A DNA stretch of 62,630 nt, the filler included, from Hausera hauseri (Eukaryota): assembly GCA_046269625.1 (NCBI GenBank). It is 11 parts of 11 records of this genome, joined end to end, with 100 filler letters (N's around TTAATTAATTAA, not from the genome) between each part and the next. Parts side by side here need not be neighbours in the genome. Positions count along the whole stretch, not along the records: positions 32,183 to 42,408 come from JBJURY010218854.1; 10 more parts are not named here. The stretch is one strand, 5' to 3'. The position numbers and the translations under genes were made by a program. Below the pieces are notes generated by a model. The model did not search any database and was not told the DNA's origin. It saw only the letters and a list, made by a program, of their open reading frames with translations. This document shows positions 32,183 through 36,455 of this stretch, piece after piece; the first letter of the stretch is position 1, and each line of letters opens with the position of its first letter.

Positions 32183-33660
32183 AAAATCAAATCAACTCGA
32201 CAGTTATAAATGTTCAATTAATAAAACATTTCTGGATTCTATCAGACATATCTTGGCAATGGTGGAATATCCGGTATTGCAAGTGAAAACTATTTCAGTT
32301 TCCGATGGGATGTAAAATTTATCCATAATTATCATGAAAATCCAAATAAAAAATATATATCGTAATATGTGGACTTAAATTCGAAGACAAAAGTTTAAAA
32401 AATTTTATAAAAATCTTTGTGACAGCATCTGTGTCGTATGGGGAAAATGCTAAAAATTTTGTAAAGTTGCATATGGAGAAAGACACATTTGGTCGTCAAT
32501 AGAGATCACTTATGGTCAAAATGCAGATCCTACTACGAAGGAGGATTCCAGAGATTGATTTAGAACTCTGTGGTGGTAATATGGCGAAAAATAATCTTGA
32601 CGTAACAGAAAGCAGTTATATATTTAAGTTACCGGCAAAAAATTTGAATTATGAAGATTGATTTAAAAACGAAATGGGTAGTAAGAAGGTTCGAATGTCA
32701 CTCGTATTGGACAAAGACAAAATGCCTCAATTCAATTTGAAAGTGAATTATGTACAACGAAGACGCTATTTGAAAGATACGGATTGGGAAATTTTTTTTA
32801 CAATACCAAACCATATTGCATCTGTAAAATGGAATTTTAAAGAAGTTGACGTGAGAAAATTCGAGTACGATCTTGAAGGTTTGTATAACTTTCACACGCT
32901 ATCAATAAATGGTGTACAATTACAAATATCATATTTAAATTACGAATCAAATCTAATAACCAAACTACCAGTGACTAAAGATTTACAAAGGAAATTGAAA
33001 ATCGGTCTAAAAATCAATCTAGAAGATTTATCAAACGGACGTATTAACGGTGACATCGAACTGCAATCGACCATAGCCATTGTAAAACATGAAAACCATA
33101 TGGTCAGTTGAACAGAAAAATGGTAATGTTATGGGAAATCTTAATGTTCAGTACAAGTTCCGAAAAGCTTTACAAATAGCGATTAAGGAATTTTATAAAA
33201 ACGAAGACCAGACCGTAAGCCGGATCCAAGTGGCTTTACCAATATTCTGGAACTACCATCAATCAAAGTTGTTAATGAATTTGTCTCTAGTCAAAAATTT
33301 CTTTACAAAACGTTTATCAATTGAAAAATATTCAAATCTGATCTATTCACATGATGCTTTATTCAGTCCACGAGATTATAAGATTAAAAGCAAATTACCG
33401 GAAATGACATTCAAAACTATTGATATTGAATCGACTTGGAAAAATGAGGGGAAAACTACAATCACGAATTCTTGGATACAATTAGGTGACAAGTATATCG
33501 TTAATGTGACGAGCGTTACCAAGGTTATTCCACTGACAGGCCATGCAAATTTCGAACTGAAAACCAACTCGAATTATTATTCCAATTATTTGAATATGAA
33601 AATGATATCTGTCTATAAGAAAATCATACTAAATGACGTTATAATGATGGAACTCGAAGT
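32183..33660 (+). pseudogene. Fragmented host ORF, beta-strand-rich (large lipid transfer protein-like, uncertain), interrupted by retrotransposon G1
   Basis: Overlapping ORFs 32674-33111 and 33089-33817 show alternating amphipathic patterns. The last ~50 aa of the second ORF are element-derived. Confidence 0.4.
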
Positions 33661-36455
33661 GGATGAGTCAACCACCCCGAAGTTTCGGTTTCGATGTGAC
33701 TGCGCAGAATTTCCGGCCGCCCGCCCAAGATCATTGGGTCGGACGGCACTGTTCGCGGGGACCCCGCATCGTGCCCCTGGTTACACATCAACCCCATTTT
33801 CCCTTTTCCTTTTTTAAATAACACACATTTACACCATCAAGGCATCGCAAATGAACAACACACAAATTTATAACAACGTCTGTGTCTTTACCTGATTTCT
33901 ACATCACACACAACGGCTCTAAAGTACCTATCTCTGGGATCCTACATTCTTCTTCACCTCCATATATATTTTCGCATCCGTGGTGGCATGTATTCTTCGC
34001 AAACCGTAGACACCACGGATAAAGCCACCACGAAACCAGAGCCCATTATACTACTCCAGTAATCCACTTCTACTTCTGCTAATAACCATTCAACCCCTAC
34101 TTCTTCCGCTCCTTTCCCTCACTACACTGAATTCTTTATCGACAACCAAGGCTCCTGCAAAACATTGTTGCAATTTCTCCAACTGTGGCTACAGGCAAAC
34201 AACGTTACTGATTCCTTAACTAAAACACACAACTTCCTTTTCTTCCTCCCTAACAATATTAGAACACGAATTCATAACATCATTGAAACCTTTGAACTTC
34301 CTGATCCGTATTCACAACTCTTCAACGCCATTCTTAAGATCACAGAACCCTCAGTGAACACTATCATGCAACGATTTTTTCACGAAAACGTCATAGGTAC
34401 ACAACGACCATCAGACTTTTTACGTACTTTTTTGGCACACCTACAAACCCTCGGCGTCATGAAAGAACATAATTCAGAATTGCTTCACCACCAATTCCAC
34501 AACGTGTTGCCCATCCAAATTTGGGCCCTACTTACCGTCATGGAGGACTCCATGGCTTTGAAAAATTGGCCGAATTAGCCAACAATACACATGACGTTTT
34601 GCACTTAAGCTCCCCATCAGTCGTTTCGGCGACAGTTGCTGCAAATGGTAATCAAAATAACAACGCAACGATAGAACAACAGTTGAATTAGCGACGTGAT
34701 GAAAACACAGCATTGTAGTCAAAAATTAACATAATTATAATAATAAATTGAATGAACATTCGCTGTCCCGCCGAAGAGATTTTGTCACTGATTGCGCCAA
34801 TTCTGTACCTAGAAACCAGTCACAGTCGTCTGCGCGGTCATCTATTTGCTATTATCACAGCAGATTTAATAAAGGTGCCAAAAATGCTGCCTAAGGTGCA
34901 GATTTTACCATAAAAGTTTTTTTTCAGACACTGTTGTTTGCATTTACCACAAAAAGCTTAAAAATCGAACCCGTAAATGCATTCCAGACTGCACTTTCAA
35001 AACAGATACGAACGACGGACGTGCCAACTTTTTTTCTAATAGTCGTTCTAGTTCACCTTTCCAATAAAAAAGTTTGCCGTCAGAAATCACGGCAAACTCT
35101 GGCAAAGGCATTGCTTCACCTTCTGAATGCCGACATGCCTCTTTTGCGGTATTTACTCTAAAGGCTGCAATCACTGCTTCCACAACGCAATCCGTTGATT
35201 TCCTCAATGATACAGGGGCAGAGATTTCTTTATTGCCACAAACCTTTCCTGTCCAAAATTCGCCATTGAAAATTAAATCTTTATACACCGCTTCGTATCA
35301 ACTGCAGCACATTTCTGGCATGGCTAAACTATCTTTTACCCTATCGAAATTTCCTTCACCATTCCACTGGACGTTCACAGTTGATAATGTCCAGATGGCA
35401 ATTTTAGGTTCTGATTTTTATCACATTATAATTTATTGGTTGACTGCAGTCAACGATGTCTGAGGAGTGGTTTCACTGGCAGCGTTAGTGAGTATATAAA
35501 TAGCATTTCGACTGCCGCGCAGTCGATTGGGACGCGGAGATCAATTTTGAGGAAATCACAAATTAATTCGAATTTCCGTAACAATTTTATTTTATTTCGT
35601 AAATTTTTAAACCATAACATCGATATTCAGTCGAAGTTTGATGTCGTTAATTGTGAGGCTGTTACCAACGTTAATTCACTTGACGAAATCACTTTATCCA
35701 ACAACATTTTCAATTCCACCATCTTGCACCAAATACCAATCGACTTTACATCAGCAAACAATTCACAAATTGCATCCGCTACCACTCAAGCTGCTTCACT
35801 ATCATCACGGAATTACTCACAATCGCGTACAAGTTTGCAGAAATTCGGTAACACATCATGTCCACGCGTACTTAAAGAAGATCGTACGTTTACTCCTGCA
35901 AACAGTACTTTACACCACATAGTTACACAGCACCAACGACCAATACATCACAAGTTAGGATCACTGTCACATCGTCGTAGGCAGGCCGTAGAAGCCGAAT
36001 TTCTTGAAATAGAATGCTCCGGAATCTTACACCGTTCAAAATCCCTTTGGTCGTCACCTTTACATGTCGTGCAAAGAAGGCCGGAAATTTTAGACCATGG
36101 GGTGTTTACCGACAGTTGAACAACTTGACTATTATGGATGCGTACCCCTTGCCACTCATCAAGGATACCTGGCATCTCTTTAATTCAATCGCAGTTTATT
36201 CGACAATTGATTTGGCCAAAGCATATCACCAAATACCAGTTGCAGTTGAAGACATAGAAAAGACTGCTGTCACTACTCCTTTTGGTCTCTACGAATATCT
36301 GTTTATGCCATTCGGTTTGAGAAATGCCACACAGACTTTTCAGCGACACATTGACTCAATTCTCTGAGATTTCCCGTTTGCGCACCCTTATATCAATGAT
36401 ATTCTGGTCGTTTCGTCTTCAGCCAAACAGCACGAGGAACACCTCCGTGCAATTG
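33661..36455 (+). mobile_element. CsRn1-like gypsy copy G1 (terminal repeat 33661/4-33768, Ubl ending RIRGG 33987, Gag, protease, RT; 3'-truncated)
   Basis: HLHIYFRIRGG|MYSS; Gag GTQRPSDFLR; two CHCC motifs; FLNDTGAEISLLP; IDLAKAYHQIP..KTAVTTPFGLYEY..MPFGL; YIND. Confidence 0.93.

Follow-up and report, generated by a model that had tools for sequence, protein, structure and literature searches.

Decayed Ty3/gypsy elements in Hausera hauseri with a ubiquitin-like domain ahead of Gag and host-like flanking fragments

Element copies in the window

The window analysed here is a 62,630-nt stretch of Hausera hauseri DNA made up of 11 unlinked contigs with spacers between them, and the frame and flank counts given below refer to these contigs. 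The decayed Ty3/gypsy copies considered here are designated A, C, G1, G2 and H. All are heavily broken, none is preserved with both ends, and none shows a target-site duplication or, where it meets the upstream flank, a convincing primer site. The order of the coding regions, Gag followed by PR-RT-RH-IN, is typical of Ty3/gypsy (Metaviridae). Copies A, G1 and G2 have diverged by 23-37% from each other, and 5-16 frameshifting indels separate each copy pair.

Copy G1, on the plus strand, consists of a 5' GC-rich repeat (33657..33784), a ubiquitin-like domain (Ubl) broken by frameshifts (33790..33987), and decayed Gag, protease and RT (33988..36454) that are cut off within RT. The G1 Gag resembles DUF7041 at E 0.0012-0.0018, below the curated cut-off, and several relatives score above it. 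Copy G2, on the same strand, comprises the repeat (38319..38446), a broken Ubl ending RGG (38447..38670) and decayed Gag-PR-RT-RH-IN (38671..42408) running off the contig. On the minus strand, copy A has the repeat at 1511..1638, followed by Ubl and Gag in a single frame with one stop (764..1510), the Ubl ending RGV at 1286. Copy C, also on the minus strand, is an open frame (10069..10746) of 82 upstream codons with an ATG at 10500, the Ubl (approximately 10392-10174, ending RIRGG) and the start of Gag. Copy H, on the plus strand, retains decayed RT-RH-IN and a pol tail (42509..45514), the latter similar to the C-terminus of P0003/P0004. Behind it, at 45585..45700, a polypurine tract (PPT, 45585-45593) is followed by the 107-nt GC-rich head of a TG-starting 3' LTR (TGTGG...CTCA), a pattern also seen in the related loci L001, L003 and L006.

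Candidate primer-like sites were noted at 13829 (one mismatch, past a scaffold gap) and 2540 (two mismatches). At the G1 joint, a putative primer-site remnant matches at 10 of 18 positions and was dismissed, since seven sites in 9 kb of flanks do equally well. A word search with the read-through protein of copy A returned no homologues.

The ubiquitin-like domain and its junction with Gag

The Ubl ends in Gly-Gly directly before Gag in three of the four window copies that carry it, and in GV in copy A. The codon after this position is ATG in A, C and G1 (at 33988 in G1, where the Ubl ends RIRGG) and ATT in G2. In A and G2, the Ubl frame has no Met from the last stop ahead of the domain up to the domain itself. 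Inspection gave no conserved splice acceptor ahead of the Ubl, as the copies share no AG after the pyrimidine tract. Differences between copies fall preferentially on third codon positions in the Ubl (A-G2, P 1e-5; A-G1, P 0.03), as they do in Gag, indicating that the Ubl has been coded under selection.

The fold was assessed mainly through intact relatives. In the AlphaFold model of P0152, the closest of them, residues 100-173 form a predicted beta-grasp that matches ubiquitin in Foldseek (TM 0.72-0.75, E 1e-3). In addition, P0147 and P0148 match Pfam ubiquitin at E 1e-22, and L007 is similar to ISG15 (E 6e-4). Alignments of the window copies with P0152 and P0154 reach E 2e-7 to 1e-9. By profile, the Ubl of the window lineage matches Pfam-verified Ubls weakly (E 0.0015, probability 16%), the family profile has SDE2 as top PDB match, again weakly (E 0.023), and Pfam ubiquitin is matched by none of the window copies. 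As modelled, the domain has the beta-grasp fold of ubiquitin, and we regard this fold, the GG-Gag junction, the coding selection and the lack of a Met in the Ubl as established.

The 5' GC-rich repeat

A GC-rich 5' repeat of about 123 nt is common to A, G1 and G2. The earlier note had observed that the Ubl frame stays open through the repeat with no conserved ATG, and the three peptides are indeed present (beginning at 38324 in G2, at 1633 on the minus strand in A and at 33662 in G1) with no shared ATG. This openness is at chance level and carries no sign of coding constraint. At the composition of the repeat, a stop-free frame is expected with P 0.78 (G2), 0.32 (A) and 0.47 (G1), jointly about 0.12 even assuming independence; two frames out of three are free of stops in every copy; and there is no third-position excess (P 0.42 and 0.16). 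This agrees with the caveat that a GC-rich repeat is stop-poor by chance, and the idea that selection kept it open finds no support. One codon, ACG, is shared in frame by the three copies about 20 codons before the Ubl, with C at -3 in all of them.

Global alignment identifies the repeat as the PPT and LTR head of H in inverted form (reverse complement, P=0.0002; forward, P 0.92). The best match of the G2 repeat is likewise the reverse complement of that segment, and an AAG at the start of the repeat is common to the three joints. A duplex test of the G2 repeat gave z -4.6; in the same test no signal came from A (z -1.1), C (z -0.7) or the three intact relatives, and copy C shows no significant match to the 5' repeat. 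The inverted PPT/LTR-head copy at a fixed joint is also taken here as established.

Host-like flanking sequences

Coding-like sequences adjoin or accompany the copies. The stretch upstream of G1 is broken into two parts on the plus strand, frameshifted against each other: 32662..33108, which has same-frame stops upstream and no credible Pfam match, and 33086..33663, which has no Pfam or Atlas match and is in frame with the repeat. Ahead of G2 lies an ankyrin-repeat stretch (37511..38322, plus strand), which had been described as an exon but is continuous, intron-free, frameshifted and interrupted by two stops, and whose own frame meets TGA at 38323, right at the joint. Located between the RT-truncated G1, about 1 kb away, and G2, it is the only such piece with element sequence on both sides. 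The flank of A (1637..2414, minus strand) contains a 214-codon ORF and a Tudor-like piece (TUDOR E 0.079, weak), neither in the Ubl frame, as had been noted earlier. An intronless TTC8/BBS8 piece with stops (3341..4192, minus strand) has 277 codons collinear with residues 144-426 of bovine TTC8 (E 1e-88), and the contig of C carries an intronless, frameshifted CBP/p300 piece (12289..13602, minus strand; E 4e-40). Behind the LTR head of H, a stretch on the sense strand (45703..46960, plus) without Pfam match has nine stops in its frame vs 19-35 in the other five. No firm family match was obtained for the flank pieces of G1, C, A and H. A code with TAA/TAG as Gln was set aside by inspection: the glutamines of the CBP piece are CAA/CAG, and one TTC8 stop stands at a Tyr position.

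On the four contigs with element copies, six of six flank pieces that look coding run in element sense, in agreement with the codirectionality reported earlier. Their frames relative to the Ubl frame are 0, +1 and -1, so that one of three joints is in frame, or two of four counting C. No in-frame bias is apparent among these joints (P 0.70 and 0.41, respectively, under chance; the sample is small and the phases may have decayed). In G1, the ORF from ATG 33089 does read in frame into the repeat over 192 codons, exceeding all 150 shuffles (maximum 137). However, G1 is frameshifted near 33810 and again within the Ubl, so this host ORF (33089-33817), previously thought to enter the Ubl frame, stops at TAA 33815-33817 before the Ubl, and ATG 33089 is an internal Met just past the frameshift within a longer broken coding stretch. 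The C ORF (10722-10069), for which the same had been claimed, is open beyond chance over the 82 codons upstream of the Ubl (P 0.002), but it starts with TTG at 10722. Its first in-frame ATG, at 10500, is 36 codons ahead of the Ubl, so copy C has an ATG. The frame of the C flank with the fewest stops differs from the Ubl frame, and no homology marks the 82-codon frame as that of a host gene. The in-frame run of G1 and the open codons of C also fit selection for read-in.

The TTC8, CBP and ankyrin pieces are partial, in sense and intronless, as read from the pieces alone; by inspection, an intron of roughly 40 nt with GT-AG borders interrupts a spalt-like gene on the contig of C. The flanks are broken mosaics of unrelated genes, and their broken, intronless state (where the genes are identified) is again considered established. 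Insertion into genes accounts for sense, broken and intronless flanks less well than does mRNA capture through template switching, and the flanking "host genes" probably represent broken mRNA fragments that the element picked up. Expression through host genes at insertion sites, as first proposed, is not borne out by the window.

Intact relatives

The Ubl-GG-Gag architecture is clade-wide. Among 150 profile matches in protein databases, 31 passed the filter for GG before Gag. The three loci of the clade that contain an LTR and a primer site (L002, L003 and L006/L007) all have a PPT, an LTR, the primer site TGGTGTCAGAAG and an ORF that runs from an ATG within the LTR through the primer site into the Ubl; these LTR-born ORFs, too, we count as established. 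Direct LTRs with the primer site behind the 5' LTR are seen in L002 and L006, both circularly permuted contigs, and in L003. The stretches after the primer site are open beyond chance in L002, L003 and L006/L007 (P 0.001, 0.006 and <0.0004, respectively). In addition, the primer-site peptide occurs in the leader of 12 of the 31 proteins, with no matches in 8172 aa of their Gag. Seven of the 31 have in-frame host-protein pieces ahead of the Ubl, according to gene models that include one artefact-like case, and a Met directly after GG is present in only four.

In a quick RH tree of 97 rows, from which matches under 180 aa or with stops were excluded, L002, L003 and L006/L007 cluster with G2 in one clade (SH-aLRT 99). 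They are nevertheless distant from the window copies (40-43% RH identity), and the inverted repeat is absent from them. In P0152, the repeat peptide has stayed in frame (P 0.001), and the first Met lies upstream of that peptide; the G1 repeat peptide reaches no better than P 0.087 against P0152, and none of the repeat peptides matches P0296 (P 0.29-0.76). L008, an outgroup locus, combines TGGTGACCCCGA with a plain Gag. Two scans of viral contigs for the pattern gave 0 of 63 and 0 of 47 matches; a scan of genome contigs gave nine loci, of which five were translated over the first 1,400 nt (L081-L084 and L089) without reaching the leader.

Possible routes of Gag expression

A Ubl that has no Met of its own and ends in GG directly before Gag makes an upstream start followed by cleavage the likely route of expression. 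We therefore favour, with a probability of roughly 55%, a joint reading in which the copies are dead Ty3/gypsy elements with a start-less Ubl-GG on Gag, an upstream start, release by deubiquitinases, and flanks derived from captured mRNA. Translation would have started further upstream, in a variable leader, and host deubiquitinases would probably have cut Gag free after the Gly-Gly. That the GG site of the Ubl frees Gag had been suggested before; the domain proved real, selected, without Met and placed with GG before Gag, and its cleavage stays a prediction. The reverse transcriptase likely captured the mRNA pieces by switching templates at the repeat joint, where base pairing between the repeat and the element 3' end may have helped. 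In the window sub-lineage, the start may have lain in the LTR/leader or in captured cargo, which could supply one when in frame. The clade-wide Ubl-GG-Gag order, the starts within LTRs and the in-frame host pieces in 7 of 31 proteins lend support to the Ubl-release idea.

A start within the element, whether on a non-AUG codon of the repeat or on the Met that follows GG, with flanks irrelevant to expression, appears unlikely. The in-frame ACG shared by A, G1 and G2, the ATG that A, C and G1 carry behind the GG position and the ATG at 10500 in C would suit it. However, a start after GG cannot explain the selection on the Ubl, only 4 of 31 relatives have a Met there, and each of the three copies places a C at position -3 of the ACG, against the Kozak rule. 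Still less probable is that accidents of reverse transcription left the inverted repeat and joints as scars, in copies never expressed in their present form. In favour of this, all copies are heavily broken and no primer site was found at the joint. Against it, the repeat and joint recur in A, G1 and G2, which are 23-37% apart and whose Ubl and Gag were under coding selection as they diverged, and the repeat peptide is still in frame in the intact P0152. About as improbable is the earlier proposal that an element bounded by ~123-nt inverted ends inserts in sense into exons, where the host promoter and start codon drive synthesis of a host-Ubl-Gag fusion: although the element ends TG...CA form an inverted pair, all flanks are in sense with G1 in frame and C open upstream, the first Met of P0152 precedes the repeat peptide, flank decay could postdate insertion, and A-runs at the A and G2 joints together with the many indels may have erased the original phases, the joints are in all three phases, the repeat is unconstrained, the flanks are intronless mosaics from unrelated genes, and the three intact relatives with readable DNA begin their ORF inside their own LTR.

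Returning to the upstream start with release of Gag, a clade-wide ubiquitin cap, together with an ORF that begins in the LTR and crosses the primer site, would make capsid production independent of upstream sequence, which could explain the tolerance of heavy mRNA capture, and Gag maturation would depend on a host deubiquitinase. A bolder and rather doubtful extension is that the sub-lineage has lost its own start codon and runs on captured host mRNA 5' ends, with the reverse transcriptase switching onto mRNAs at a fixed joint set by the inverted PPT/LTR-head copy, which would pair with the element 3' end, and with Gag made by the copies with in-frame cargo. If so, the ubiquitin cap would make Gag indifferent to the preceding sequence, and gene capture would be part of the replication cycle rather than an accident.

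Comparison with known systems

In the collection of open full-text papers searched, we found no paper on a clade-wide Ubl-capped Gag. LTR-mediated retroposition, in the cases described by Tan et al. 2016 (PMC5131818), yields partial, intronless, sense mRNA pieces that replace part of an element and may join several genes; the BLASTOPIA retrocopies of Drosophila have a fixed switch-back site and replaced internal ORFs. The window flanks are alike in their pieces. Whereas the cargo described there replaces internal ORFs and makes retrocopies, that of the window precedes an otherwise complete Ubl-Gag-Pol, its joint adjoins the inverted PPT/LTR head, and it may feed Gag translation.

Cytopathogenic pestiviruses, as portrayed in the relevant parts of two reports (PMC8310069, PMC13517609), capture ubiquitin without its first residues and with a host-protein fragment ahead, and this ubiquitin is a processing signal at which cellular hydrolases cut to give a defined N-terminus. 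There the insertion is sporadic and inside an RNA-virus polyprotein, whereas the Ubl of the window is fixed, clade-wide, often diverged and at the Gag N-terminus, with predicted cleavage. The SDE2-type fusions, in the portions of the reports that describe them (PMC5131917, PMC6486553, PMC13572447), likewise have a diverged Ubl ending GG before a downstream protein, but they are host genes with their own start and no variable leader. The planarian Burro/GYPSM1 giant gypsy elements also have a Ubi2/SUMO-like domain; as presented in the account of these elements (PMC6431247), it is inside a ~4,900-aa polyprotein downstream of Gag and is not a GG-ended Gag cap.

CsRn1-type Ty3/gypsy elements resemble the window clade in PR-RT-RH-IN, in a G-run PPT followed by TGTGG/TGTAG and in a DUF7041-like Gag, although the likeness is below the curated cut-off in G1. 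They have a tRNA-Trp primer site, whereas the intact members of the window clade carry TGGTGTCAGAAG. In addition, the window clade is separate from the CsRn1 type in the RH tree and adds the Ubl and a read-through leader.

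Decayed copies and the origin of the 5' repeat

The 11 contigs of the window are unlinked, their joints being N-TTAATTAATTAA-N spacers, and carry one Ty3/gypsy lineage of domain order Gag-PR-RT-RH-IN in five decayed copies. Copies A and C are 5' parts on the minus strand, G1 breaks off within RT (~36454), G2 continues past the edge of its contig, and H is a 3' part. Between copies, 5-16 frameshifting indels are counted per pair. The gene pieces also present (TTC8, CBP, ankyrin, FYVE) mark the genome as animal-type. A TAG occupies the same Gag position in G1 (34688-34690) and G2 (39372-39374), where C has a Gln codon; it is either an old lesion common to both or a CAG deamination hotspot.

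A GC-rich stretch of ~123 nt ahead of the ubiquitin-like (Ubl) domain, the 5' repeat, is common to A, G1 and G2 (pairwise P 0.001). As an earlier note had reported, it is open in the Ubl frame in all three; in A and G2 no Met precedes Ubl in this frame. The openness carries little weight, being at chance level and unconstrained: dinucleotide shuffles leave any one frame free of stops with P 0.78 (G2), 0.32 (A) and 0.47 (G1), as the note's own caveat about GC-rich repeats had anticipated, and two of the three frames are open in all these copies. Third-position excess among substitutions is not significant in the repeat (P 0.42, 0.16) but is found in Ubl (P 1e-5, 0.03) and also in Gag.

At the 3' end of H, a G-run polypurine tract (PPT, 45585-45593) is followed by a 107-nt LTR head, TGTGG...CTCA, in the same pattern as in intact relatives. 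Against this PPT plus head, the 5' repeats match the reverse complement (G2 P 0.0002, G1 P 0.017, A P 0.024; summed P 0.0002) and not the forward strand (P 0.92); C matches neither strand. Duplex energies between repeat and 3' end agree for G2 (z -4.6) and G1 (z -3.7), with no such support for A or C. In sequence, the 5' repeat is thus the 3' end of the element copied in inverted orientation, internally or at the terminus, rather than a direct 5' LTR, and the earlier argument that it may be too small for a promoter does not apply as stated. A primer site was searched for at the border of flank and repeat (the joint) and not found; positions 13829 and 2540, further upstream, hold weaker candidates.

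The Ubl domain

Pfam ubiquitin matches no copy in the window. Atlas matches to Ubl are ubiquitin-like clusters (0.84-0.86, leads only), and the profile comparison is weak (E 0.0015), yet above 20 shuffles. P0152, the closest intact relative among the matches listed, aligns to A and G2 over repeat plus Ubl (E ~2e-7), the repeat peptide alone giving P 0.001 for G2. In its structure model the leader is disordered and residues 100-173 form a beta-grasp, modelled with confidence and matching ubiquitin (TM 0.72-0.75); the predicted fold starts without a Met. GG directly precedes Gag in C, G1 and G2, and GV in A.

The Ubl of one relative (L003 4464-4889 and protein P0148; the L003 contig breaks inside it) is near true ubiquitin (Pfam E 1e-22), and others are SDE2/ISG15-like or barely recognisable, a spread that hints at repeated replacement of Ubl by host ubiquitin. 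Outside the main group, more canonical DUF7041 Gags (P0240, P0251, P0270, P0196) have the Ubl-GG cap as well, and in two of them a tubulin or RING piece stands upstream; the cap may extend beyond the main group, or be convergent.

Intact relatives and the start of translation

The Pol proteins closest to the window are P0003-P0005 (64-68% identity). Among the best 80 of 577 loci from a metagenome scan, L001-L007 form one clade with G2 (SH-aLRT 99, quick tree). The sequence extends as far as LTR and primer site in L002, L003 and L006/L007 (one element), and does not reach the leader in L001, L004 and L005. The former three elements have a PPT, an LTR of 341-433 nt, TGGTGTCAGAAG and one ORF, which begins at an ATG within the LTR and continues across primer site and leader into Ubl. 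Since L002 and L006 are circularly permuted, this in-LTR start is the element's own. The fixed segment between primer site and Ubl is open (P 0.001, 0.006 and <0.0004) with 8-16 stops in other frames, and the frame is not open to the outer LTR end in any of the three. A splice-donor-like motif lies ~25 nt past the primer site (L002 4419-4450, L003 4619-4660, L007 273-305), the T-rich leader after it staying in frame, and alternative splicing of the leader is possible. Seven scanned loci (L081-L084, L086, L087, L089) are eukaryotic gypsy contigs inside bacterial MAG records, that is, binning contamination.

At the protein level, a strict GG-before-Gag filter passed 31 of the 150 matches listed from 1041, and missed some true cases (e.g. 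P0251, P0270). A primer-site peptide, with motifs chosen from the relatives' own primer site, stands upstream of Ubl in 12 of the 31, in all three frames, and is absent from 8172 aa of Gag parts.

Most likely, on this analysis, translation of Ubl-Gag would begin upstream, within a leader that varies, and host deubiquitinases would then cut after GG and free Gag, in the manner of pestivirus ubiquitin insertions (PMC8310069). The Ubl-GG-Gag architecture is a variant on already known kinds of system. Initiation inside the element, at a non-AUG codon or after GG, is unlikely. That the copies are dead-on-arrival scars is rather improbable.

Host-like flanks and the proposed insertion-site hijacking

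The earlier note described the flanks as codirectional, and indeed 6/6 coding-like pieces on the four element contigs lie in the element's sense: three are firm (TTC8, CBP, ankyrin), one is weak (Tudor) and two are recognised by open frames alone. The TTC8 and CBP pieces (277 and ~390 codons) are collinear, lack introns and contain stops; a spalt-like zinc-finger gene on the C contig (16300-16950) has a short GT-AG intron. Different genes adjoin three copies at the same joint. Intronless sense pieces and different genes at one joint match what Tan et al. (PMC5131818) outline for mRNA pieces captured when the template is switched, a switch site that stays fixed among them, and the flanks were probably captured in this way.

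Recognisable host pieces precede Ubl in frame in 7 of the 31 listed proteins (gene models, protein level only): DIS3L and CNOT1 in P0154 (twin P0296), the closest to copy C among the matches listed, histone H2A (P0163), 5'-nucleotidase (P0171), SCC3/SA (P0176), LRRC47 (P0172), Hsp90 (P0169) and, weakly, CSL4 (P0167, E 0.02). In P0296, the DIS3L and CNOT1 pieces are separated by a primer-site-like peptide and leader, an order that would put CNOT1 within the element. Three JGI entries proved on checking to be plain ORFs of their contigs, but P0299 has a bacterial-looking N-terminus fused to mid-Gag, so artefacts are present in the collection; database proteins are, besides, selected for possessing an upstream start.

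The earlier note had proposed sense, in-frame insertion into host ORFs, and as written is partly supported. In G1, ORF 33089-33817 is coding-like, with 192 codons up to the joint, and in frame with the repeat, but its ATG (33089) is an internal Met after a frameshift, within a longer broken coding stretch, and its stop (33815-33817) precedes Ubl. The C frame said to read in from 10722 begins there with TTG, its first ATG being at 10500; 82 upstream codons, without tie to a host gene, are open beyond chance (P 0.002). The ankyrin frame of G2 reads TGA at the joint, and A is out of frame, as noted earlier, its Ubl frame being neither of two candidate upstream frames. Flank phases relative to Ubl across three joints are 0, +1 and -1; A-runs at two joints mean that the original phases may have shifted. 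The bias check, run on the window, gives 1/3 in-frame joints, or 2/4 with C, against 1/3 expected (P 0.70, 0.41; a tiny sample). Expression of Gag by hijack of genes at the insertion site is improbable.

Other contents of the window

A second, unrelated gypsy element lies at 17234-21857 (RT, RH and IN, 25-40% identity to P0003). The long ORFs that follow it (19600-20343, 20292-21857) include a hydrophobic segment and may be env-like or accessory. The contig at 27422-32082 is pyrimidine-rich low-complexity sequence throughout, made up of TCT-type repeats and broken by many internal gaps. A FYVE-finger gene piece lies at 55087-55401. Decayed Polinton/adintovirus-like pieces lie within 4293-9124, 47371-55476 and 55577-62630, with protein-primed DNA polymerase B and endonuclease VII matches at 61869-62387 and a 1.5-kb block present twice (56001-57508/60945-62497); by eye only, the second contig has a PolB-like stretch, and capsid-like ORFs lie at ~54088-54714.
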